A stretch of DNA of 64,000 nucleotides, taken from Coriobacteriaceae bacterium (GTDB lineage: Bacteria > Actinomycetota > Coriobacteriia > Coriobacteriales > UMGS124). A program made the position numbers and the translations under genes. The notes below the pieces were generated by a model. It was not told where the DNA came from. It ran no database searches and saw nothing but the letters and a program-made list of their open reading frames with translations. The DNA lies in NCBI GenBank assembly GCA_019421015.1, contig JAHZGC010000024.1, forward strand, positions 862 to 64,861. The letters run 5' to 3'. Every line of letters starts with the position of its first letter. Position 1 is the first letter of the stretch. Shown here in pieces: positions 3,154 through 52,731 of the stretch.

Positions 3154-3940
3154 TACACACTTCCTTTCCCTCTCTAAAGCCTATCGGTGGTCGGTTCCAC
3201 CGCTGATATGTGGGTAGCGGAACCGCCCACATCTACCCATTGTATAAATCCAGCCTCAAAACGCGTCCATGCGAGGGCGTGTCAACCACATGGGCGGTTC
3301 TGACCGGACGGCCTGTGGGACGGGCGGCGTGTATGGAGCCGTGTGCGGTTGCCCTGGGCCGTGGCCGCAGTGTACCCCCTCTGGTTGGTCATAACAATAG
3401 GGAATAACGGAGTTTATATGCATAAAAAACTATATCGAACCTTGGAATAACGGAAAATAAATTACAGCCTCTATCTCGAAATACTTTTCATATGGGCCAA
3501 AGTATCTAAAAGGCTATTTTATGCAATCAAAAAATATTCTTATGCATATATAGACTCCAACCTCCTCATCTCCACCCTCGTGGGGAGGCATGTCGCGAAA
3601 GGTCCGGAGCAGCGAGGGCGGGGGAGGCGTGGGTTGACGGGGCGTCGGGAGAGAACGTGCCCAAAACCGCAGCGTGTCTTATCCGGGGCGGATTTCAATA
3701 CCCGAAACGGGGTTATGAACTCCAGGGGGTCGGAATCTTCTTGACGTTATGTCAAAGGGCAAAGATAACCGGAAGCAAGGTATGGTGGCTTTGTGAAGGC
3801 GTGGCTATCGTGGCTGCCGGTAGCGCGCATCGCCGCAAACCTCCTGGTAGGAAGCGGTGTGCGCTCATGGGGTCGCACCTGCGCCTGTGGTTTTGCCATA
3901 GGGGGTGCGAGCAAGTTAAGGGAGTCATGAGAGGAGAGAG

Positions 3941-7880: not shown

Positions 7881-9431
7881 ATGGGCCAAGCGGACAATCC
7901 CGAAGGACCTTCTACGGCGGACGCCCAGGCGGTCGCGGCCGCCCTGCGGGGCCTGCCCCGCGTCGACGACATGCTTGCCGACCCGGCGGTGGCGCAGGCC
8001 CGGCAGGGTGTGCCCCGCGAAGTGGCACTTGCGGCGGTACGCGGGCTGCTCGACGAGGAGCGCGCCTGCATCCGCGCCGGCCGGCCGGGCCGGTCCCGCG
8101 AGGGCCTTTTGGCCGAGTGCGCGGCCCGCGTGGCCCTGGCCGCCCTGCCGCACCTGCGCTGCGTGGTGAACGCCACCGGTACGGTCATCCACACCAACCT
8201 GGGCCGTGCGCCGCTCTCGGCCAAGGTCGCCGCCCACGTGGCCGATGTGGCGAGCCACTACTCCACCCTCGAGTTCGACGTGGAGGAGGGGGTGCGCGGC
8301 TCGCGCCACGACCATGTGCGCGAGCTCATCTGCGCCATCACGGGGGCCGAGGACGCGGCGGTGGTGAACAACAACGCCGCCGCCGTGATGATGGTCCTCG
8401 CCGAGTTCGCCCGGGGCCGCGAGGTCGTGGTGAGCCGCGGCGAGCTCATCGAGATCGGCGGGTCGTTCCGCATCCCCGACATCATGGCCATGTCGGGGGC
8501 GCGCATGGTGGAGGTGGGCACCACCAACAAGACCCACCTGGTCGACTTTGAGCGGGCCATCACGCCCGAGACGGCCCTCGTCCTCAAGGTGCACCCCTCC
8601 AACTACCGCGTCGTGGGCTTCCACGAGGAGGTGGCCCCCGACGAGCTGGCGCGGCTGGCCCACGCCCACGGCGTCATGGTCTACGAGGACCAGGGCTCCG
8701 GCTCCTTCGTGGACCTGGCCGCCGCCGGTGTCGGCTCCGGCGAGCACACGGCGGCCTGGTCGCTCGCCCAGGGGGTCGACCTCGTGAGCTTCTCGGGCGA
8801 CAAGCTGCTCGGCGCGGCCCAGGCGGGCATCATCGTGGGCTCCTCGGAGCTGGTGCGCCGCGTGAAGAAGAACCCCCTCATGCGCGCCATGCGCCCCGAC
8901 AAGATGACCCTGGCCGCCGTGGAGGCGGTGCTGCGCTCCTACCTCGACGGCGACGCCGCCTGGCGCGACGTGCCCGTGCTCGCCATGCTCGGCGCCACCC
9001 CCCGCCAGCTCCACGAGCGGGCGTCGGCGCTGTTCGGGCGTATCGTCGCCGCACTTGGGGAGCGAGGGGTGGCCTACTCCTTCGACGGCCCGCAGGACGC
9101 GTCGGCCCAGGCGGGGGAGACGCCCTGCGGGCTGCAGGCGGGTCCGGTGCGCCTGCGGGTGACCCCCCTGGAGTCCTGCGTGGGCGGCGGGGCCCTTCCC
9201 ACCGAGGAGCTGCCGGGCTACGGGCTGCGCCTTGAGGTCGACGGCGTCTCGCCTAACCGCCTGCGCGCACGGCTCCTCTCGGTGCGCCCCCGGGCCGTGG
9301 TGGCCCGCGTGGGCGACGGCGCGCTGCTGTGCGACGTGCGCACCCTGGTGGACGAGCGCGACGAGGCCGACGTGGTCGAGGCCCTGGCAAACGTGGTTGA
9401 GCAGGCTGTGGCAGAAGGGAGCACACGATGA
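7881..9431 (+). CDS. selA: L-seryl-tRNA(Sec) selenium transferase
   Basis: Motifs are [16 protein letters not shown] and the PLP-lysine motif [17 protein letters not shown]. The stop overlaps the selB start (ATGA). Confidence 0.9.
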
Positions 9432-11404
9432 GCGCGGACGAGAAGGACCCGGAGGTTGCGGTGATTGTGGGGACCGCGGGCCATGTGGACCACGGCAAAA
9501 GCTCGCTCGTCATGGCCCTCACGGGCACCGACCCCGACCGCCTGCCGCAAGAGAAGGCCCGCGGCATCACCATCGACCTGGGCTTTGCCGAGCTGACGCT
9601 TCCCAGCGGGCGGCAGGTGGGCCTCGTCGACGTCCCCGGCCACGAGCACTACGTGCGCGCCATGGTGGCCGGTGCCGCCGGGGTGGACGTGGCGCTGCTC
9701 GTGGTTGCGGCAGACGACGGCGTGATGCCCCAAACCCGCGAGCACCTTCGCATCCTCGAGGTCATGGGTGCCACCCAGATGGTCGTTGCCCTCACCAAGG
9801 CCGACCTCGTGGAGCCCGACTGGCTCGAGCTCGTGCAGATGGACCTCGAGGAGTTCCTCGAGGGGACGCGTTTTGCCGGGGCGCCCGTGGTACCGGTCTC
9901 GAGCCGTACGGGCGAGGGCCTGCCCCGCTTGTTGGAGGCCTTGGACGCGGCGGCCGAGAAGTTCGCGTGCTCCGAGGCCGCGGCCGCGCGGCTGGCGCGG
10001 CCGGCGCGTCTGGCGGTAGACCGCGCGTTCAACGTGGCCGGCGTGGGCGCCGTGGTCACGGGCACGCTGCGCTCGGGCACGCTCGCCCCCGGCGACGCGG
10101 TGGACGTGCTGCCGGCCGGGACGCGCGCCAAGGTGCGCAACGTGCAGGTGCACGGCCGCGACGTCGCGCGCGCCTGCGCGGGGCAGCGCACCGCCCTCAA
10201 CCTCACGGGCGTGGGGCTCGAGGAGGTGCCCCGCGGCGCCACCGTGTGTGCGCCGGGGTCGCTCGCCGCGCACGACCGCTTCGACGGCATACTGCGCTGG
10301 TTCGGACGCGACCGGGACGACCCGGCGCCACTGGTCTCGGGGGAGCGCGTGCACGTGTGCGTGGGCACCTCACAGGCCCTGGGCCGCGTGCTGCTCTTCG
10401 ACGGGGCCCCCGAGCTGGCCTGCGGCCAGCAGGCGCTGGTGCAGGTGCGCCTGGAGGAGCCGCTGGTGCTCGCCGCCCAGGATCGCTTTGTGGTGATGGC
10501 CTTCTCGCCCGTGGAGCTGGTGGGGGGTGGCACCGTGCTGTGGGCCAACCCGCCGCGCCGCACGACGCCTGCCGAGGCCGACCGCGCGCTGCTGGCCGCC
10601 CTGGGGGCGTGCGACGAACGGGGGGCCGTGCTGGCCCTGGCGACGCGGTCGGCCTTGCCGTTCACGGCACCCGAGGTCGCCGCCTCACTCGACCTGGGGG
10701 CCGACCGGGCGGCCGGGCTGCTCGCCGAGCTGGCGGCCGCCGGCGAGCTCGAGGCGCTGGGGACGCCCGGGGCGGCCCAGGCGTTCTCGACGCCGGCGCA
10801 GCTCGATGCGCTCTGCCAGAAGATGGTGGGGGAGCTCAAGGGGGACCACGGCCTGGCCCAGGCGGGCACCGGCGTGCCCGTGCTCGCCCTGCGCGACCGC
10901 GTGGCCCCGCGCATGGACGCCGCGGCCTTCGGGGCCCTGGTGGCGCGTGCCGAGGCGCAGGGGTTGGTGGGACGCTTTGGGGCCGGCGTGGTGGCCGGCG
11001 ACGACCTGGAGCGCCTGCGCCGCGAGGCCGGCGAGCTTACCGACCGCGTGCAGGCGTCGCTCGACGCCCACGGGGTGGCCGTGCCGTTCGTGGAGGACCT
11101 GGTGGGCGAGCTGGGGCTCGACGAGGCCGTGGTGCGCCGCGGCCTCACCATGCTTTGCGACGAGGGGCGCGCCGTGGCCGTGGACCGCTCCTACGTCATG
11201 GGTAAGGCGGCCCACGACGCCGCTTGCGAGACCGTGGCCGCCACCATCCGCGCCGCCGGCGGCCAAGTCTCGGCCGGCGAGCTGCGCGAGGCGCTGGGCC
11301 TCTCGCGCAAGTACGCGATGCCGTTCTTGGAGCACCTCGACAAGATAGGGTTCACCGTGCGCTCGGCCGACGGGCAAGGCGCCCGCAGCCTGGCCAAGCC
11401 GTAA
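9428..11404 (+). CDS. selB: Selenocysteine-specific translation elongation factor
   Basis: GTPase motifs are [22 protein letters not shown] and LTKADL. The protein is 658 aa, with the long C-terminal extension typical of bacterial SelB. It is translationally coupled to selA. Confidence 0.9.
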
Positions 11405-11548
11405 AGGCTGGAGGCCGTGCGGGGTGCGGGCGACCCTGGGTGGCATGGGGCGAGCGGGCGGCCCGGGCGGGGCTGGACGACGCGTGCGGCGGGCGAGGCG
11501 GGATCGGGTTGGGTGACACGGGATGCGGGCGGGGTGGAGGCTGCCTTG

Positions 11549-11730
11549 TTAATCAATATAGAAAGATAAATTTTGAAAACGATGACTTTTGCATGACGTA
11601 TTGCAGGCTTTGATTCCACCGTTATGAAGAGGGACAAAGAAATACCTGGATTGGTGTGAATTGTTGTAATGTATATATAATTGGGGCAATCACAGTCATG
11701 CATTTGTCTGAGTTTTTACGATTGATGTTT
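11549..11730 (+). repeat. AT-rich TIR element, copy A (family of 3 full copies)
   Basis: It shares three conserved blocks with copies B and C. The blocks are AAATYTYGAAAAYGATGRCTTWTGCATG, AAAGAAAYRCCTGGAWYGGTGTGAATKGTTGYAA and TCATGCATTTGYC..AG.TTTTAY.ATTGAT. Blocks 1 and 3 are inverted repeats of each other. AT content is far above the flanking DNA. Confidence 0.85.
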
Positions 11731-11738
11731 TCTGCCCT

Positions 11739-11806
11739 CGTGTCTCGACTTCCCTGCCCCCGGCGTCTCGACTTCCCTGCCCCGGCGTCTCGACTTCTCC
11801 GTCCCC
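11739..11806 (+). repeat. Tandem direct repeat, 3 x 22-23 nt (consensus GGCGTCTCGACTTCCCTGCCCC)
   Basis: The units are 11739-11760, 11761-11783 and 11784-11806, read directly from the sequence. The third unit is slightly diverged (TTCTCCGTCCCC). Confidence 0.9.
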
Positions 11807-11868
11807 GCATGTCAGCCTCTTGACCCCGCGGCCCGGTTTGCGCATTTGCTGTCGATTGCGGGCCGCAG

Positions 11869-11908: not shown

Positions 11909-12005
11909 GGAGGCGGATGGGTCCTGGTGGGCCCCGCGGTCTTCAAAACCGTTGCGAGGCGTGCAGAGCGTCTTGGATGTGTTCGATTCGCATACGCCTC
12001 CGCCA
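11909..12005 (+). tRNA. selC: tRNA-Sec (anticodon UCA)
   Basis: It was folded by hand from 97 nt. The acceptor is GGAGGCG(G)/(A)CGCCTCC plus G-CCA. The D-stem has 6 bp (GGGTCC/GGGCCC) with a 4-nt loop TGGT. The anticodon loop is CTTCAAA, with TCA at 11943-11945. There is a long variable arm (AGGCG-TGCAGAG-CGTCT). The T-arm is ATGTG-TTCGATT-CGCAT. Confidence 0.93.
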
Positions 12006-21309: not shown

Positions 21310-22350
21310 AACCTGCCGTGCTGGCGTTTGCAACGCAGCGACCAACGCGGGGGCGCTGGTTGCAAGCTCGATGGGCTATATGACCGAGGAGGCGGCCCAG
21401 AACCTGGCCGATACCGAGGTCGAGGTTGTCGACTGGCTTACGGCCTCCGGCACGGTTTTCAACGGCGTGATGGCGGACGGGTTTGGCTACGGGTTGTACC
21501 ACTCCGAGGCCAACGTCTCTCTTGCCTACGGCGCAAACGTGCCCTACGAGACCGCGGCCCAGCAGCTCGTGTATGACCCCGTGACTACAGCAATCCACGA
21601 AAACTGCTGGACAAGGCGCGCGAGGGCGCGGTGTGCCAGGGCACATAAGCCCGAGCACAACGCAGTATCAGCAATTCCGTGGATTGCTATAGGGAGGTCC
21701 TGGGCGTGTGTGCGGTGAACGCCGCCGGCGAAGACGTGTATGCCAAGGTGACCAGGGGCGTGGTGCTGGCCACCGGCAACTTTGTGGCCAACAAGGAGCT
21801 CATGCACAATTTCATGCGGCCACGCGAGGTCGAGAACGTGCAGCTCAGCTCTTCCTACGACGAGGGCGACGCCCTGCTCATGGGCCTCGAGATCGGCGCG
21901 GCGACCCACAACCTCAACTCGTTCACGTTCGAGCTGACCGACATGGCGCTGAAAAAGGCGAGCGAGGAGGCGGGTGTCGGCTTTGACGTGGGGGCCACGT
22001 GCTCTTGCTCCGACTCGCCCATCTACGTGAACCAGAAGGCCTACCGGTTCATGAACGAGGGCCAGTTGCTCGACCACTTTAAGGGAACGCGCCCCTGGTT
22101 CGAGTACGGCAGCATCGCGGCCAGCGGCTACACCGGCTGGCCCAACCTGCCGTGCTACGTGGTCATCGATTCCAAGCTCGCCGACTCGTCGCCCATCAGC
22201 ACGACCTCGAGTTGCCGCATGTCGTGGGCCGGCGCGCAGGGGCTGCACTACTGGAGCCCAGACAACCAGGACGAGGTCGACCGCGGGTGGCTCGTGAAGG
22301 CCGATACCCTCGAGGAACTCGTGGCGACGCTTGCCAAGCAGGGTGGGCGC
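21310..22350 (+). pseudogene. Internal fragment of a FAD flavoprotein reductase paralog, truncated at both ends and split by a MITE
   Basis: Pieces 21371..21583 (...EVVDWLTASGTVFNG...QQLVYDPVT) and 21691..~22345 (REVLGVCAVNAAGEDVYAKVTRGVVLATGNF...WLVKADTLEELVATLAKQGG) match the middle of the intact paralogs. The FAD-binding N-terminus and the C-terminal ~120 aa are absent. Confidence 0.75.
21586..21691. mobile_element. GC-rich palindromic MITE, copy 1, inserted in the flavoprotein fragment (TA...TA flanks)
   Basis: It shares the core GCTGGACAAGGCGCGCGAGGGCGCGGTGTGC...GCACAT..GC.CGAGC.CAACGC.G.A.CAGC with copies at 40443 and 52627. The terminal inverted repeats are CAGCAATCCACGAAAACTGCTGG / CAGCAATTCCGTGGATTGCTA. 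It is flanked by TA on both sides. Confidence 0.85.
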
Positions 22351-23424: not shown

Positions 23425-23766
23425 GTGGCCCTGCGTATTGGAATCGATCCCCGGCAGCTAGATGCCTCCAAAATCTCCAGCGCGATAAAGCCGGTCTTCG
23501 ATCGTTGGCCTGTTGCCAAGGCGTGGCTGTATGGTTCGGTGGCCCGTGGCGAGCAGACGGAATACAGCGATATCGACATAGCCTTCGTACCGCTTCCTAA
23601 CGCGCGCATTGGGTGGAATATCCTGCATCTTCAGTGTGAGCTTGAAGATGCTCTTGATACCGAAGTCGATATCCAAACGGCTCCCAACAGGCGCATGGCT
23701 AGCAAGAGGTTTCTCCGCGAGTTCGACCGTGACAAGGTGGTTGTGTATGAGCGCTCGGCAGAATGA
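23425..23766 (+). CDS. mntA: MntA-type minimal nucleotidyltransferase (antitoxin of HepT/MntA type VII TA system)
   Basis: The motif is LYGSVARGEQTEYSDIDIAFV (GSxxRG...DxD). I prefer GTG 23425, which follows SD AAGGAGGG, over the track's TTG 23389, which has no SD. Confidence 0.8.
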   Translation: MALRIGIDPRQLDASKISSAIKPVFDRWPVAKAWLYGSVARGEQTEYSDIDIAFVPLPNARIGWNILHLQCELEDALDTEVDIQTAPNRRMASKRFLREFDRDKVVVYERSAE

Positions 23767-24127
23767 CGACAGCAGGATCCAGGAGATTTGGGACAACATC
23801 AACCAGCTTGAGGAACGCATTGCGGCAAGCGAAATGACAGAAGAGCGGTTTATCCACCCGCAGAATCCTGTTGAAGAAACCATTGTTGAGGGTTTGACGT
23901 TTCAGCTGTACAGGATTCTTGAGGAAGCGGCCGCTCTAACAGATAGAACCAAGGGCACATTTTTTGATGCGCCGTGGGATGAGATGCGCGGAATGCGCAA
24001 CCGGTTGGCGCACGATTATCCGGGGACGAACTTCGAAGTTGTATGGGACGCGATTGCGAACAGCATGGATGAGCTCAGGCAGGTGTGTATCGCGTATGGT
24101 TCCATGCGCGGCATAGAGCTAGGCTAG
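23747..24127 (+). CDS. hepT: HepT-type HEPN (DUF86) RNase toxin
   Basis: The Rx4HxY HEPN motif is RNRLAHDY. Internal ATG 23747 overlaps the mntA end by 20 nt, the classic TA arrangement. GC is lower than the surroundings. Confidence 0.8.
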   Translation: MSARQNDDSRIQEIWDNINQLEERIAASEMTEERFIHPQNPVEETIVEGLTFQLYRILEEAAALTDRTKGTFFDAPWDEMRGMRNRLAHDYPGTNFEVVWDAIANSMDELRQVCIAYGSMRGIELG

Positions 24128-25966: not shown

Positions 25967-26030
25967 CAGCGGGGGAGGAGCCGGCCGGTCTGCAGGTACG
26001 AGGCACGTGATGTAAGGGTGGTTTGGCGGC

Positions 26031-26063
26031 GGGGGCACCTTGCGGGGTGCCCCCGTTTTTGTT
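26031..26063 (+). terminator. Intrinsic terminator after flavoprotein paralog 1
   Basis: GGGGGCACC-ttgcgg-GGTGCCCCC is followed by GTTTTTGTT. Confidence 0.75.
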
Positions 26064-26137
26064 GGGCGATGGGCGGAGGGGGTGGGAGGCCGATCCATGG
26101 GGCCGAGGGTCTGGACCGAAGGTTGGGTTGGGCGCAG

Positions 26138-26320
26138 AATAAATCAATATAGAAGGTAAAATCTCGAAAACGATGGCTTTTGCATGACATGCTAAGAAAA
26201 ATGATACCATGGTTATGGAGATGAGCGAAGAAACGCCTGGATTGGTGTGAATGGTTGCAAACAATATATCATTGTATAAATAATAATCATGCATTTGCCA
26301 TAGATTTTATTGTTGATTGC
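26138..26320 (+). repeat. AT-rich TIR element, copy B
   Basis: It has the same three conserved blocks as copies A and C. The ends AATCAATATAGAAGGTAAAATCT and AGATTTTATTGTTGATT are inverted repeats. Confidence 0.85.
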
Positions 26321-26476
26321 ACGCAAGTAAACCACGGGTTCCGCCTGTGGAGCAACGGACGGTTCCACCGTCCTGTGCCCGTAACTGAAAAACCTCGCCC
26401 TGCCATATTGTCCGCGGCGAGCTGACCGCGGAAGGAAGGGAGAGGTCATGACGAACGAAATGACGTTCGGTATGAC

Positions 26477-26717
26477 ATTCAAACCCACGCTCCCCGCGAG
26501 GGGGAGCGACTCGAGCACGACGGCGCCGGACTCCTCCGGCGTGCAATTCAAACCCACGCTCCCCGCGAGGGGGAGCGACTCGTCCAGCTCGTAGGCCATG
26601 GGGTGGCCGTGGGATTCAAACCCACGCTCCCTGCGAGGGGGAGCGACCTGGATGAGTGGTTCAAGGCGGGGAAGGGTGAGGCCATTCAAACCCACGCTCC
26701 CCGCGAGGGGGAGCGAC
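26477..26717 (-). CRISPR. Orphan mini CRISPR array: 4 repeats of 34 nt, 3 spacers (35, 34, 36 nt); type I-C-like repeat
   Basis: Repeats lie at 26477-26510, 26546-26579, 26614-26647 (one C>T variant) and 26684-26717. The plus-strand sequence is ATTCAAACCCACGCTCCCCGCGAGGGGGAGCGAC. Its reverse complement GTCGCTCCCCCTCGCGGGGAGCGTGGGTTTGAAT follows the I-C pattern GTCGC..palindrome..GCGTGG.TTGAAx, hence the minus orientation. No cas genes occur anywhere in the window. Confidence 0.85.
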
Positions 26718-26904
26718 TGCGGTTCCACGCCTTGCGGCACCGCGGGCAAGAATCGAACAGCTTCTGATTATTATGGCCTCGGCCCGTCCCCGGTAATGCA
26801 AGCCTTCTGGAAGCAGATGGTGAACACCTGACGTATCCCGCGGGCCTTCACGCTCGAGGAGCCCAATGACGAGAGCCTCGAGATTACCTCTGGGAGCGAC
26901 TCGC

Positions 26905-28443
26905 CTACGCCATCTCCCCGCCGCGAGCGCCCCGAGCGACGCCTCCCTCCTCCCACCCCTGCACCAACAGCAGAAGCTCCTGCTTCGAGGCCACGCCGGC
27001 CTTCTCGTAGATGCGGCCGATGTGGGTGCTGGCCGTGCCGTCGGCGATGAAGAGCTTCTCGCAGATGAGCCGGCGGCTGTTGCCCCGCGCCAGCAGTAAG
27101 AATACGTCGGTCTCGCGTTCCGAAAGGCCGAGCGACTTCGCGAGTGCCCGCAGTCCGTCGGAGCCCGGCGGGTCCGAGACGGTCACGATGGCTGCCGGCA
27201 TCTGGGCGGCTTCCGGTGGGTGCACGCCCGTCTCGCCCGAGGCTTTCTCCGCTGCGGCCGCCGCGGACCTCGGGGTGTCTTCGTGCGCCGCGTCGGCGCG
27301 TCCCTGCAGGTCGCGCAGGCTGTTCCCTATGCCGTAAAAATGGTAGAGCGTCCATACGAGCATCGCCAGCATAGCTAAGAAGCCCAGCTGCACAATGACC
27401 AGGTTCAGTCCCTCGTCGAACAAGATGAGGTATTGAAACGCCACGGTGACCCCTGCGTTCACGCTGAACGAGAGTCCCACGAGTCGCCAGGGCCGCATCT
27501 CGAGGGCGTTGAGCGCCAACAGCAGCACGAACCACGAGAACTCCTCGCCGTAGTACTCAGCAAAGTGCTCGATGGTCGCGAGGGCGGCGGGGTCGAGCGG
27601 CAACAGCTGCGAGGTGCCCGAGTAGAGGAACAGGTAGATGGCGAACAGCACGAGCAGCCCGGGCATGAACCGCAGCAGCAGGCTCGACTCAGTCTTGACC
27701 AGCGTCACGTAGGACACGGCGCAAAAGACCACCGACCCCGCGACTAGCGGCCCCAGGCCTTCTCCGGTGAGTGCGAAGGGGTTGCCCCAAAAGCCCGTGT
27801 TGCCCACGGCGCATGCGATGGCAAAGGCCACCGACGATATGACGACCAGTCCGAGCATAACCGTGGAGAGGGGCCGCTCGAACGTGACGCTCTTCATCGG
27901 TGCGGCCACCTGCCCTTCTGCCTGCCGGGCTGCCCAGGTAAGCCCCGTGCACAGCGCCGGCAACAGGCAGAAGAGCGCACGTTCGTCGGTCTCGCCCAAG
28001 ACGGCGTCGGCCCCGTACATGAGCGCGCCCCGCAGTACGAAGACCGCGATGACCGCCACGCCGGCCACCTTGCGGTCGGCGATGCGGGAGAACAGCAGCA
28101 CCTCGGCGACGAGCAGCACGATGTTCGTGTATCCGGTGCCCACGGCGGCCAAGGCCGAGAACGCGAGCGGTACGTCCGAGAACTGGAGCGCGGCCGATGC
28201 GGTCCCTAAAACCGCGCAGGCGCTCAAGGCCGTCCCTTCGTGGCGCTCCAACCACCGGGGGGCGGCGCAGGCCGTGAGCGAAGCCAGCAGCATACCGGTC
28301 AGAAACAGCGTGTGCCCGTCGGCAAAAGCCTGGCGCAGCAGCAGGTCGTGGGCGAGAAACGCGGTCCCGTGGCCGGGGAGGTCGAACCACAGAAAGTTGA
28401 GCGCCATGGCCACGGTGGCCAATGCGACCGCCCTTCTCCTCAT
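26905..28443 (-). CDS. Polytopic-membrane LuxR-type transcriptional regulator (N-terminal multi-TM sensor-like domain, C-terminal LuxR HTH), paralog 1
   Basis: Many hydrophobic segments are followed by LSERETDVFLLLARGNSRRLICEKLFIADGTASTHIGRIYEKAGV. The start was moved to ATG 28443 (MRRRAVALATVAMAL...), preceded by SD GGGGAGGGG. Confidence 0.85.
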   Translation of the reverse strand: MRRRAVALATVAMALNFLWFDLPGHGTAFLAHDLLLRQAFADGHTLFLTGMLLASLTACAAPRWLERHEGTALSACAVLGTASAALQFSDVPLAFSALAAVGTGYTNIVLLVAEVLLFSRIADRKVAGVAVIAVFVLRGALMYGADAVLGETDERALFCLLPALCTGLTWAARQAEGQVAAPMKSVTFERPLSTVMLGLVVISSVAFAIACAVGNTGFWGNPFALTGEGLGPLVAGSVVFCAVSYVTLVKTESSLLLRFMPGLLVLFAIYLFLYSGTSQLLPLDPAALATIEHFAEYYGEEFSWFVLLLALNALEMRPWRLVGLSFSVNAGVTVAFQYLILFDEGLNLVIVQLGFLAMLAMLVWTLYHFYGIGNSLRDLQGRADAAHEDTPRSAAAAAEKASGETGVHPPEAAQMPAAIVTVSDPPGSDGLRALAKSLGLSERETDVFLLLARGNSRRLICEKLFIADGTASTHIGRIYEKAGVASKQELLLLVQGWEEGGVARGARGGEMA

Positions 28444-30493: not shown

Positions 30494-30880
30494 ATGCACG
30501 AGATGTCGCTTATGAAGAACGTCCTGGCTATCGTGCTCGACGAATGTGCGGGCAAGGGCGTGGTGGCGGTCAAGGAGGTGAGCCTCACCATTGGCGAGCA
30601 ACGCGACGTGGCGGTCGAGTACGCCGAGGGGCTGTTTCGCTTCTTGGCCCGGGGGACTGTGGCCGAAAAGGCCACGCTCAAGGTGAGGCGCGTGCCGTTC
30701 ACCGTGCGCTGCATGGAGTGCGGCGACATCTTTAAGATAGATACCCGCGATCCCGAGACCTGGGCCTGCCCGCGCTGCGGTGTGCGGCAGCGCTACCGGG
30801 TGTTCAGCGGCCACGAGTTTCAGGTCGACGCGATCGAGGTGGAGCTGGCAGGGGAGCGCGGTGCCGGTACGGCGGCGTGA
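30494..30880 (+). CDS. hypA: HypA/HybF-type nickel metallochaperone (orphan copy)
   Basis: The N-terminus MHEMSLMKNVLAIVLDE carries the MHE nickel site. The zinc ribbon is CMECG...CPRCG. The protein is 128 aa, with SD GAAAGGTGG. No other hyp or hydrogenase genes occur in the window. Confidence 0.8.
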   Translation: MHEMSLMKNVLAIVLDECAGKGVVAVKEVSLTIGEQRDVAVEYAEGLFRFLARGTVAEKATLKVRRVPFTVRCMECGDIFKIDTRDPETWACPRCGVRQRYRVFSGHEFQVDAIEVELAGERGAGTAA

Positions 30881-30974
30881 GGGACGGGAAAGGGTGTGGG
30901 GGTTCGAGGCTGGGGCGCACGGGATTGGGGCAAGAGGCTGCAAAGCACGCTGCGGGGTTTACGATGAGGATGAT

Positions 30975-31157
30975 GTATCAGCTGAGAAAGTGAAATCTCG
31001 AAAATGATGACTTATGCATGGTATAATGTGAAAAATGATACTAGTACTATGGAGACGGCCAAAGAAATGCCTGGAACGGTGTGAATGGTTGCAAAGATTA
31101 TATCAAATGTGGGAATTTATACCATGCATTTGCCATAGATTTTACTATTGATTAAAT
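30975..31157 (+). repeat. AT-rich TIR element, copy C
   Basis: Its conserved blocks are GAAATCTCGAAAATGATGACTTATGCATG, AAAGAAATGCCTGGAACGGTGTGAATGGTTGCAA and CCATGCATTTGCCATAGATTTTACTATTGATTAA. Confidence 0.85.
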
Positions 31158-31240: not shown

Positions 31241-31283
31241 TAATCAATAGGAAAAACAATAACTATTACTATTGCATGATACT
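31241..31283 (+). repeat. Partial or collapsed copy of the AT-rich element (left-TIR-like TTAATCAATAGGAAAAA ... TTGCATGA)
   Basis: TTAATCAATAGGAAAAACAATAACTATTACTATTGCATGAT resembles the first ~45 nt of copy A (TTAATCAATATAGAAAG...TTTTGCATGA). It abuts the stop of the LuxR gene at 31299. Confidence 0.5.
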
Positions 31284-31298: not shown

Positions 31299-32888
31299 CT
31301 ACCCCCGCCCCTCATCCTTCTCGCGTTGTGCCTCCAGAAGGTCGAGCACCTGCTGGCGGTTGTGCACACCGAGCTTGCGGTAGAGGTTCTTGCAGTGGGA
31401 GCGCACGGTGTTCTCGGACACGTAGAGGGTCTCGGCCATATGGGCCACGTCGCGGCCGCGCACGATGAGCTCAAGGACGTCGGCTTCGCGGTTCGAGAGC
31501 TTGAAGTCCCGCTTGAGGGAACTGCAGTAGCTGGGCACCATGTCTTGCACCACCACGACCCGGCGCGTCATGACATGCTCCTGCGCCTCTTGGGCGGCGT
31601 CCGGCATGAGGGGGGTGGACGGCGTGGGAACGGGTGCATCTTTTGGTTCGGATGTGGCCCCGCCGTCTGGGAGGGTCCGAGTGTCGCCCAGGATCGGGTC
31701 GAAGTCAGACGCTTCGCCCGTGCCGCGGATCATGCCTACGATCGCCCCAGAAAACGAAAGGACGTAGATCGAGAGAAGTGCCACGACGAGCAGCTGGGCC
31801 ACGTCGAGGCCTTCTCCAAAAGCCGCTCCCACCAGCCTTCCCACCAAAACGCAAAGGTAGACCGAGCCGGCAAACAGGCCGAAGACTGCTATGGGGTCGA
31901 GGTTGCGCAACCGGGCGATACGCAGGCAGGTGAGCATCATGAACATCGACACGAGGGTAAAGGCCAGGTTGGCGATGCCTGCGAAGACCGCCCGGTACTC
32001 GCTTGCCATAAAGGGCAGCAGCAGGAAGCCCGTGATGATGCCGAAGAATATGACTACGTAGGCGCCCTTAAAGGTGAACGAGCGATGTAGGCCTTCCCAA
32101 AGCCATAGCAGCAGGATCGCCGCCACCAGCATGCCTGCGGCGAGCAGGGTGTTAAGCAACAAGGCGTCGGTCTGGGTGCTGCGTGCCATGACGCGGGTGA
32201 CTCCGCTTACATAGCCTACCGTGGCCACGCAGAGGACCGATCGCCAGATGCTTGAGGCGAGTCCCCCCAACCCTGCACCTGGGGTTCGGGCGATAAGCAG
32301 CCCGTCGGCCGGAGGCGTTGCAGCTCGGTCGAAGAGCTTTGCGGTGCATGCCTTGAGGAAGGCGGCGTTCAAGACGATGAGCGCAAAGACCGCCACTCCA
32401 TAGGCAGTCACCTGTTGGACGAATGACAGGGCGAGGTAGAGCAGACCGCCCAGGGCGGTGCCCAGTACGATTGTGCGGTTCGCCTGCATGGGTTCCATGC
32501 TCGCCATAACGCGCTGCCAGGCCACCAACGAGAGGGCATGGGCCATTCCCACCAGAACTGCGGAGCAACCGAGAAGCACCTGGGCATCCTGTCCACAGGA
32601 GGAGAACGCGAAAAGCCCCGCGTAGCCCAACGTCCAAGTAATGGTGGAGGGGACGGTGGTGTTGCGGTTGAACAGGCCGTTCAAGTACAGGCAGCCGAAC
32701 CCGAATGAGAACAAGGTTGCTATGAACCCGGTCGAGCGAAAGGTCTCGAAGGCCGTCAGGTCGGCGGCGGCGATGCCCGAGAGGTGCACGAGGGTGATAA
32801 GGCCCCAGGCCGAGGTCGACCCAAGGGTGAGGAAGATGCCGAAGCCCAAAGTGGCGATGACGGTGGGACTCATGCGGAGAAAGGACAT
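31299..32888 (-). CDS. Polytopic-membrane LuxR-type transcriptional regulator, paralog 2
   Basis: The protein is 529 aa, with many TM segments followed by LSNREADVLELIVRGRDVAHMAETLYVSENTVRSHCKNLYRKLGV. SD GAGGAA precedes ATG 32888. Confidence 0.88.
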   Translation of the reverse strand: MSFLRMSPTVIATLGFGIFLTLGSTSAWGLITLVHLSGIAAADLTAFETFRSTGFIATLFSFGFGCLYLNGLFNRNTTVPSTITWTLGYAGLFAFSSCGQDAQVLLGCSAVLVGMAHALSLVAWQRVMASMEPMQANRTIVLGTALGGLLYLALSFVQQVTAYGVAVFALIVLNAAFLKACTAKLFDRAATPPADGLLIARTPGAGLGGLASSIWRSVLCVATVGYVSGVTRVMARSTQTDALLLNTLLAAGMLVAAILLLWLWEGLHRSFTFKGAYVVIFFGIITGFLLLPFMASEYRAVFAGIANLAFTLVSMFMMLTCLRIARLRNLDPIAVFGLFAGSVYLCVLVGRLVGAAFGEGLDVAQLLVVALLSIYVLSFSGAIVGMIRGTGEASDFDPILGDTRTLPDGGATSEPKDAPVPTPSTPLMPDAAQEAQEHVMTRRVVVVQDMVPSYCSSLKRDFKLSNREADVLELIVRGRDVAHMAETLYVSENTVRSHCKNLYRKLGVHNRQQVLDLLEAQREKDEGRG

Positions 32889-40442: not shown

Positions 40443-40556
40443 TATAGCAGCCCACGAAATTGCTGGACAAGGCGCGCGAGGGCGCGGTGTGCTTAAGGCA
40501 CATAGGCCCGAGCGCAACGCAGCACCAGCGATTCCGTGGACCGCTAGACTGCTATA
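40443..40556. mobile_element. GC-rich palindromic MITE, copy 2 (TA...TA flanks)
   Basis: The sequence is TA-TAGCAGCCCACGAAATTGCTGGACAAGGCGCGCGAGGGCGCGGTGTGC...CCAGCGATTCCGTGGACCGCTAGACTGCTA-TA. It is intergenic, between DegV and the GIY-YIG/GNAT gene. Confidence 0.85.
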
Positions 40557-52626: not shown

Positions 52627-52731
52627 TAGGGCGGTCCACAGAATCGCTGGACAAGGCGCGCGAGGGCGCGGTGTGCTGAGGCACATGAGCTCGAGCGCAA
52701 CGCGGTATCAGCGATTCTGTGGACCGCCCTA
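52627..52731. mobile_element. GC-rich palindromic MITE, copy 3 (TA...TA flanks)
   Basis: The sequence is TA-GGGCGGTCCACAGAATCGCTGGACAAGGCGCGCGAGGGCGCGGTGTGC...CAGCGATTCTGTGGACCGCCC-TA. It is intergenic. Confidence 0.85.

Follow-up and report, generated by a model that had tools for sequence, protein, structure and literature searches.

The locus and the copies of the element

The window analysed here is a stretch of 64,000 nucleotides from a Coriobacteriaceae bacterium (GenBank assembly GCA_019421015.1, contig JAHZGC010000024.1, positions 862 to 64,861 of the forward strand), which is identical to scaffold_742 of ENA ERZ28594508. Positions are counted from its first letter unless another locus is named. 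In a background of about 65% GC, it contains three full copies (A, B and C) and one truncated copy (D) of an AT-rich intergenic element of 182-183 bp, which was found to be a real, non-coding and lineage-specific repeat. The copies are located as follows.

11549..11730, plus strand: copy A, between selB (9428-11404) and tRNA-Sec (11909-12001)
26138..26320, plus strand: copy B (allele class B1), 3' of the FAD_binding_2 flavoprotein gene; its sub-blocks are the left arm (26141-26190), first variable stretch (26191-26221), core (26222-26260), second variable stretch (26261-26285) and right arm (26286-26319)
30975..31157, plus strand: copy C, between hypA (30494-30880) and the 3' end of a LuxR gene (31299-32888, minus strand)
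31241..31283, plus strand: copy D, a second copy truncated to its left arm, immediately next to the LuxR stop codon

An earlier note, made from the letters of the window alone, had proposed three copies in the same orientation at these positions, and this was borne out by pairwise blastn, block matches and a profile of the copies. Pairwise blastn gave 73% identity over 176 nt for A and B (E 4e-31), 71% over 168 nt for A and C (E 4e-25) and 78% over 169 nt for B and C (E 8e-36). Judging from this divergence of 22-29%, the three copies are old. Each of the three conserved blocks matched 2-3 times in the window and not once in 100 shuffles, and the profile, of 187 positions, placed the limits of homology at 11548-11729, 26139-26322 and 30972-31155. 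The contrast with the GC-rich background was also confirmed, since the elements are 66-67% AT and their flanks 12-44% AT. The partial copy of the earlier note proved to be a solo left arm with an internal deletion. This copy D is 86% complementary to the right arm of copy C, shows indel polymorphism between strains and is clearer in other strains, where it reads TTAATCAATAGGAAAAACGATAACTTTTTGCATGAT. No further copies were detected by blastn or the nhmmer profile in the window or in the ~17 kb past its ends; three copies and one arm are thus known in ~81 kb of the species' DNA, all of them within 20 kb.

The genes upstream of the copies on the plus strand are those described before (selB, the FAD_binding_2 flavoprotein gene and HypA), and GerE/LuxR genes converge on copies B and C, as had been stated. 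The position of copy A downstream of selB also held, with the correction that tRNA-Sec lies on its other side. Contigs from other samples end within ~70 nt of copy C (L008 at window ~31226 and L025 at window ~30946), and a short-read contig, L030, ends at window ~26030, ~110 nt before copy B. Contig ends at these AT-rich islands are consistent with a coverage drop or with strain variation and do not by themselves show a high copy number.

Architecture and conservation of the element

Each copy is composed of five parts, namely a left arm of ~50 nt, a variable stretch of ~31 nt, a core of ~39 nt, a second variable stretch of ~26 nt and a right arm of ~34 nt. The core consensus is AAGAAAyrCCTGGAwyGGyGTGAATkGTTGyAA. 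The right arm corresponds to the reverse complement of the left arm in shortened form, and the core is located at the tip of a long imperfect palindrome with the termini (A)ATCAAT...ATTGAT(T). The arms had been described as reverse complements of each other; the inverted repeats are indeed real, but they are imperfect, the left arm being longer and carrying two bulges.

A search with the profile yielded 52 matches, including those in the window, which correspond to 18 distinct sequences; pairing and covariation were evaluated on 17 alleles. At the 41 hairpin positions of the arms and core, pairing was 91% in the three copies and 88.5% in the 17 alleles, whereas only 26-45% of positions paired when the partners were slid by 1-3 columns as a control. 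Pairing of individual helices in the arms ranged from 71 to 91%. Four helices were found to be universal, namely the outer helices ATCAA/TTGAT and TGCATG/CATGCA, which were retained in 17 of 17 alleles, the inner helix TGATA/TATCA and a small hairpin in the core. Wobble pairs in the arms were considered as an indicator of the transcribed strand and were rejected as uninformative (6 G·U cells on the plus strand versus 3 on the minus strand).

When the loci were compared with each other, the arms and core were more conserved than the two variable stretches, in agreement with the earlier note; between A and C, 92 of 123 positions were identical in the arms and core versus 30 of 57 in the variable stretches. 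The central block, however, is not nearly identical in all copies, as had been claimed, since its identity between loci is 79-85%. Even at variable positions, the AT content is 62%, despite the 65% GC of the genome.

The conclusion of the earlier note that the element is non-coding was supported. Variable sites showed no 3-base periodicity (16/21/12). The only long frame, a minus-strand frame containing the peptide TIHTNPG, is open in copies A and B and is broken by a stop and a frameshift in copy C, and a profile of this frame had no relatives among 5.8 billion predicted proteins. Gene callers placed no gene over any copy. A coding element was therefore ruled out by the absent periodicity, the broken frame in copy C and the lack of protein relatives. 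An 11-codon plus-strand frame of the form M-(E/K)-x-x-(E/K)-E-x-P-G-x-(V/A)-TGA was observed at 11625-11660, 26216-26251 and 31050-31085, and it is probably incidental.

Absence of the element from sister species

Sister species were compared at two orthologous sites. The selB site was available in L005 and L006 (selB 82% and 73% identical) and the hypA site in L017 and L018/L019 (Fer4 84% and 83% identical). Copies were absent from the selB-selC and hypA sites of these species, which supports the suggestion of the earlier note that the element is transposon-like.

The spacer between selB and tRNA-Sec is 500 nt here versus 75 and 142 nt in the sister species, and only the end of selB and ~75 nt upstream of the tRNA could be aligned. 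The extra ~430 nt correspond to a whole composite that consists of a G-rich tract, the element and a C-rich tandem repeat. At the other site, the LuxR-Fer4-HypA trio is kept in the sister species. There, the gene downstream of hypA, at a distance of 99-166 nt, encodes a helicase or a dCTP deaminase, and the 3' spacer of hypA contains a C-rich tract or a plain hairpin in place of the element. Neither blastn nor nhmmer detected a copy in ~89 kb of sister DNA. In the closest sister species, L005, a 193-aa duplicate of the selB C-terminal winged-helix domain (L005 12005-12586) lies directly after selB and before tRNA-Sec.

By these alignments, extra DNA is present here at two independent orthologous sites. 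Because the elements are absent from the sister species at both comparable sites, the repeat was most likely gained by insertion. Co-duplication with the neighbouring LuxR genes was rejected as the origin of the copies. The LuxR paralogs that flank B and C are only 32% identical, in the DNA-binding domain only, versus 71-78% for the elements; therefore, the 78% identity of B and C does not result from joint duplication.

The best identity of the selB product of the species among 5.8 billion proteins was 82%, and the named matches were metagenome-assembled genomes of Coriobacteriia; no close relative of selB was present in the GTDB representatives, from which the species seems to be absent. The neighbouring ferredoxin-like protein has relatives of 41-48% identity in Eggerthella, Gordonibacter, Raoultibacter and Adlercreutzia. 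From these protein matches, the host was placed as a gut-type, uncultured member of the Coriobacteriia close to Eggerthellaceae. Exact matches to the core pattern were found neither in the GTDB representatives nor in JGI metagenomes or IMG/VR, and the right-arm pattern had none in JGI metagenomes and IMG/VR. Copy B gave no blastn matches in phages and plasmids, and literature searches yielded nothing relevant.

Variation within the species

Forty-nine loci from ~18 samples were compared, and the element was present at each site in every locus covering that site. Copy A was 99-100% identical in 6 samples and is near-invariant, as are its surroundings. Copy C was represented by seven alleles in 14 strains. 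Its diversity was 0.055 in the left arm, 0.072 in the first variable stretch, 0.041 in the core, 0.081 in the second variable stretch and 0.020 in the right arm; beside it, the diversity was 0.039 and 0.023 in non-coding DNA and 0.010-0.013 in genes. Changes in the left arm of copy C were not matched by changes in its invariant right arm. From these comparisons, the element is fixed within the species and drifts there at about the rate of neutral DNA.

Covariation among the 17 alleles was also at the level of chance. Pairing was 88.5% versus 88.4% in shuffles (199 of 500 shuffles were as high), and the covariation score was equalled by 62 of 500 shuffles. Such within-species diversity together with shuffle-level covariation is not expected of a selected RNA or a protein-binding site. 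Since the diversity of copy C is at or above that of the nearby non-coding DNA and no covariation was detected, it may be concluded that a function of the element as a host RNA is unsupported.

Recombination breakpoints at copies B and C

Copy B occurs in two forms, B1 and B2. From the left arm to the end of the core they share 94-97% identity, which falls to only ~60% in the rest of the element (second variable stretch and right arm). Homology of B2 to the window ends at 26259 in L040, at 26262 in L035 and at 26297 in L032, and it resumes at the LuxR stop codon, at 26906 or 26928. The right arm of B1 matches that of copy C at 30 of 34 positions, and the right arm of B2 is closest to that of copy A (26 of 34 positions, versus 25 of 34 for copy C). 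Between the break points, the B1 strains L033 and L044 carry a type I-C array of clustered regularly interspaced short palindromic repeats (CRISPR) with cas3, cas7, cas4, cas1 and cas2. Other B1 sequences retain CRISPR remnants (four repeats in the window and one in L031), and B2 strains have ~130 nt of C-rich DNA in place of the CRISPR segment.

The four repeats of the window form an orphan mini array at 26475-26717 with type I-C-like repeats (ATTCAAACCCACGCTCCCCGCGAGGGGGAGCGAC, minus-strand orientation), which is a remnant of the CRISPR-Cas locus that other strains keep between copy B and LuxR. In that CRISPR-Cas locus, cas5 and cas8c are apparently missing. Among the loci compared (L033, L044, L021/L036 and L031), one strain retains a single repeat, and in another the segment from the LuxR gene through cas8 was lost instead. 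The possibility that copy B is a CRISPR leader, which would lie at the end of the array nearest to cas, where transcription starts, was rejected. The repeats read GTCGC...TTTGAAT on the minus strand and cas2 of L044 is at the array end far from copy B; array orientation and cas position thus put copy B at the trailer end. Farther upstream, a toxin-antitoxin pair of MNT (NTP_transf_2) and HepT-like proteins is encoded at 23425-24127, just before the flavoprotein gene that precedes copy B.

At copy C, a different module was found in some strains.

L032 6482-10406: 3.9-kb module of a flavoprotein gene (minus strand) and a LuxR gene (plus strand), inserted at window 30974/30975; also present in L046

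This module is located exactly between the G-rich tract and the left arm of copy C, and in L032 an imperfect direct repeat of 20 bp (GGGTTTACGATGAGGATGAT) borders it on both sides. The right ends of the module and of the CRISPR-Cas segment share ~45 bp, GAGGATTATATGCTTGAYYATCTAAGAATCGAACA. L033 and L044 have this shared sequence ahead of cas3, and the window retains its final ~12 bp at 26748. By a rough count, two of the ~7 structural differences between strains fall on the elements, which cover <3% of the region. As judged from these strain alignments, the element sits at recombination breakpoints.

Composition of the flanks

The copies are accompanied by tracts of strongly skewed base composition, several of which contain G-quadruplex (G4) motifs; percentiles are given relative to the window.

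11405..11548, plus strand: G-rich tract left of copy A; (G-C)/100 = 0.34, 99.9th percentile; G4 motifs at 11421-11472 and 11491-11534
25990..26137, plus strand: G-rich tract left of copy B; skew 0.28, 99.4th percentile; G4 motif at 26064-26086
30881..30974, plus strand: G-rich tract left of copy C; skew 0.34, 99.9th percentile; G4 motif at 30881-30902
11732..11808, plus strand: C-rich 22-nt tandem repeat of 3.5 units, right of copy A and before the tRNA-Sec promoter; skew -0.27, 0.07th percentile

All three copies have G-rich left flanks of 95-150 nt, and these contain 4 of the 10 plus-strand G4 motifs in the 64 kb. Such a skew is not general among gene ends: of 28 that were checked, only those at the element sites, three in number, and a single further one reached 0.25. 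The G-rich flanks of the three copies showed no significant homology to each other, a marginal match between those of A and C being reached by 22 of 500 shuffles. The strong intrinsic terminator of the flavoprotein gene itself (26028-26065) is located within the tract that precedes copy B. C-rich right flanks were found at copy A and in the B2 allele, and the 22-nt repeat has one unit fewer in strain L001. An extended hairpin formed by the G-rich and C-rich flanks was considered and rejected, since their complementarity was no better than that of shuffles.

In the sister species, no equivalent of the ~145-nt G-rich tract was present at site A, and the short selB 3' spacers appeared modestly G-rich by eye; given this, part of the tract at site A may be ancestral. 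The G-rich tract at hypA is absent in the sister species.

Proposed interpretation as a repeat family of the MITE/ERIC kind

The element is best filed as a new repeat family resembling miniature inverted-repeat transposable elements (MITEs) and enterobacterial repetitive intergenic consensus (ERIC) sequences. This reading, of intergenic repeats that are restricted to the lineage, non-coding, AT-rich and imperfectly palindromic, was judged to have about an even chance of being correct. The second, GC-rich palindromic repeat family of the genome, described below, also speaks in its favour. Several features that define MITEs were found. The element is short (182-183 bp, within the limit of about 600 bp) and non-coding, it has terminal inverted repeats, and filled and empty orthologous sites are seen when it is compared with sister species. 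Its membership is incomplete, in that neither a target duplication nor, in the DNA and collections searched, a partner was found.

Other observations weigh against this reading. No direct repeat was seen by eye at the ends of A, B and C, although a target-site duplication could have been lost from old copies; the 20-bp repeat at the left edge of copy C in L032 belongs to the 3.9-kb insert. No transposase or longer element with these termini was found in the ~81 kb of the species' DNA, and searches for an autonomous partner, namely the exact-match scans in GTDB representatives, JGI and IMG/VR and the blastn search of phages and plasmids, were empty. Only three copies and one fragment are known, all in a span of 20 kb. 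The ~18 samples of the species did not differ in the presence or absence of the element. Finally, both the location of the G4-rich tract on the same side of all copies and the 62% AT retained at variable sites suggest a compositional constraint, which a dead transposon would not need.

If the copies do represent a MITE/ERIC-like family, the arms and core may once have been the parts through which a transposase, now no longer visible, mobilised the element in trans; their conservation between copies and their lack of protection within the species would then be accounted for. The copies would now be immobile. Their main present effect would be to provide dispersed homology and hairpin-prone AT-rich DNA at which neighbouring modules swap between strains, and the CRISPR-Cas locus and the LuxR-reductase pair would be modules exchanged in this way. 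This model leaves the G-rich and C-rich flanks unexplained. Overall, the interpretation of the earlier note is partly supported.

Alternative explanations

The tests applied gave no support for a host function. However, the constant G4-rich flank, the kept AT-richness and the breakpoints at the edges leave room for a boundary or insulator role. The element could be part of a host cis-acting boundary module in which the G-rich tract, AT-rich hairpin and C-rich tract together act as a bidirectional transcription stop or insulator, and this was regarded as possible, if rather unlikely. AT-rich DNA is a source of spurious promoters, and Rho binds C-rich, G-poor RNA. Transcripts leaving the AT-rich centre in either direction, or crossing it, would turn C-rich and G-poor and would be ended in a Rho-type manner before becoming antisense to the neighbouring gene. 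Consistent with such a role, the left flanks rank at the 99.4-99.9th percentile for G skew and hold 4 of the 10 plus-strand G4 motifs, flanks of this kind are not general among the 28 gene ends checked, and they are alike in composition and not in sequence, as a composition-dependent signal would be. In addition, C-rich right flanks occur at copy A and in B2, at site A the sister species lack the entire composite of ~430 nt, and all copies are in 3' regions, two of them between convergent genes. However, the C-rich tract is not directly behind the upstream stop codons, so termination would be late. A strong intrinsic terminator precedes copy B, so little read-through is to be expected there; the immediate right flank of copy C is not C-rich; the element itself has no intrinsic-terminator signature; and its diversity within the species is high.

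The earlier note had proposed a functional core, such as a small RNA or a terminator, on the basis of the conserved central block. This proposal was not supported by the Rfam, promoter and terminator, covariation, folding or diversity tests. With Rfam 15, only tRNA-Sec reached the gathering threshold, and the matches around B and C were at chance level (E up to 10). Single-sequence folding gave z-scores of -1.7 and -1.4. No intrinsic terminator, that is, a GC-rich stem followed by a T run, was found inside any copy, and no promoter was common to all copies. On the minus strand, B1 (TGATATATT) and C (TGATATAAT or TGATATACT) have extended -10-like motifs that precede the core by four bases, and the -10 is lost in A (TATATA) and B2 (TATGCA). 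On the plus strand, extended -10-like motifs are located at the inner end of the left arm, the best being that of copy C, TCGAAA-18-TATAAT with TG. The element was also considered as the promoter of tRNA-Sec and was rejected, since this tRNA has its own adjoining conserved TATACT/TATAAT promoter in all of the species compared.

A family of small RNA genes with a functional core, transcribed either from the plus strand, where the core would form a hairpin of 5 bp with a loop of 6 nt, or from the minus strand (with a start just upstream of GCAACCAUUCACACC), was considered improbable. In its favour, columns 97-101 of the alignment pair with columns 108-112 to form the core hairpin in 17 of 17 alleles, and where the hairpin varies, the changes are all ones that wobble pairing tolerates on the plus strand (CG/UG; GU/AU/GC). 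No other internal block is as well conserved between loci as the core, and -10-like motifs are present on the minus strand (B1 and C) and the plus strand (best in C). Nevertheless, Rfam gave no match, A and B2 have lost the minus-strand -10, the copies share no terminator, whole-structure covariation is at the shuffle level (88.5% versus 88.4%), the folding z-scores are weak, and the diversity of the core within the species is still 0.04.

It is similarly improbable that the palindrome and its G4-rich flank form an undescribed kind of boundary module that serves as a landing pad or recombination hot spot for gene modules; such a module may double as a bidirectional transcription stop. If this were true, it could partly explain how Eggerthellaceae-like gut bacteria shuffle their very large sensor-reductase repertoires, with the type I-C CRISPR-Cas locus at copy B and the LuxR-flavoprotein reductase pair at copy C as examples.

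The element could also be a target of site-specific recombination at the borders of gene cassettes, comparable to an integron attC or to the attachment site of an island, at which modules are inserted and excised. This was regarded as slightly more doubtful still. The imperfect palindrome with bulged arms, constant orientation and location at gene 3' ends resembles such sites; the CRISPR-Cas segment that is gained or lost begins inside copy B, the 3.9-kb LuxR-flavoprotein module is inserted exactly at the left edge of copy C with a 20-bp direct repeat, and the right ends of both segments share the ~45 bp of GAGGATTATATGCTTGAYYATCTAAGAATCGAACA. On the other hand, no integrase or recombinase is present nearby in the gene maps of the window strain and of the other strains' loci, and most LuxR-reductase modules in the window have no element. 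The break in B is at shared sequence, as ordinary homologous recombination gives; only two events are involved; and the copies are 71-78% identical and do not share a short exact core.

Lastly, a tiny protein encoded by the 11-codon plus-strand frame or by the minus-strand frame containing TIHTNPG is very improbable, since the former, with its ATG and TGA intact in 17 of 17 alleles, has no ribosome-binding site and differs almost exclusively by amino-acid-changing substitutions (one is synonymous), the latter can be read through in A and B but is interrupted by a stop and a frameshift in copy C and has no relatives in 5.8 billion proteins, and the variable sites have no 3-base periodicity.

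Significance

As it stands, the element is a small, species-restricted repeat family, mainly useful for annotation. Its AT-rich copies are not promoters or genes, and they account for assembly breaks and mosaic alleles in this region. It would be more important if the composite of G4-rich tract, AT-rich hairpin and C-rich tract proved functional. The ways in which high-GC gut Actinomycetota end transcription and insulate neighbouring genes are poorly understood, as is the movement of their many LuxR-reductase modules between strains; in cultured relatives, such modules metabolise drugs and dietary compounds.

Comparison with known systems and other repeats

A second dispersed intergenic hairpin repeat, which is GC-rich, is present in the same 64 kb.

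21591-21687, 40447-40544 and 52631-52727: three copies of a GC-rich palindromic repeat of ~100 nt, 81-89% identity; also found at L009 17031-17097

Unlike the AT-rich element, with which it has no sequence in common, it forms a near-perfect hairpin of 38 pairs (-59.9 kcal/mol) with 6 compensatory pairs among the three copies. It had no match in Rfam, and a GGAG-like ribosome-binding site follows two of the three copies; it could be a repetitive extragenic palindromic (REP)-like element or an undescribed 5' cis-regulatory RNA. Another AT-rich island, of ~175 bp and 73% AT, is located at 3385-3560 and 3616-3649 in the divergent promoter region of a molybdopterin oxidoreductase operon. This island has inverted ends of its own (GGAGTTTATATGCATAA / TTATGCATATATAGACTCC) and a G4 motif just to its right. 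The segment 3385-3560 was rejected as a member of the family, since no relation was detected by blastn or nhmmer.

Among known systems, integron attC sites are also imperfect palindromes with unpaired bulges that occupy gene 3' ends in one orientation, at boundaries where gene modules come and go. However, attC sites are 57-141 bp in length, whereas the element is 180 bp and has no GTTRRRY core at its ends. No integrase was present in the gene maps, the intervals between the copies hold several genes on both strands, and the breakpoints resemble those of homologous recombination.

Correia elements, which are MITEs of Neisseria of about 100-155 bp, resemble the element in being short, non-coding and AT-richer than the host genome, in having terminal inverted repeats and a conserved interior, and in being intergenic, often at gene 3' ends. 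Correia elements can carry promoter-like hexamers and form hairpins in transcripts. Nevertheless, no sequence resemblance was seen. The 26-bp terminal repeat of Correia elements is not found here, where the termini are (A)ATCAAT...ATTGAT(T), and the TA target duplication is absent, the flanking dinucleotides differing between copies. Correia elements also have no G-rich flank, and they occur in hundreds of near-identical copies in Neisseria, whereas three old copies of 71-78% identity are known here.

The ERIC sequences, also called intergenic repeat units (IRUs), and the REP sequences with their bacterial interspersed mosaic elements (BIMEs) belong to enterobacteria, a different host phylum, and have no sequence similarity to the element, which is longer (180 bp), strongly AT-rich in a GC-rich genome and seemingly low in copy number; no REP-associated tyrosine transposase (RAYT)-type enzyme was seen in the DNA examined here. 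The likeness lies in the overall plan. ERIC/IRU and REP/BIME sequences are imperfect palindromes (about 35-130 bp) in 3' or intercistronic regions, with a conserved central part, a patchy distribution between related species and a debated function in mRNA stability, termination or protein binding.

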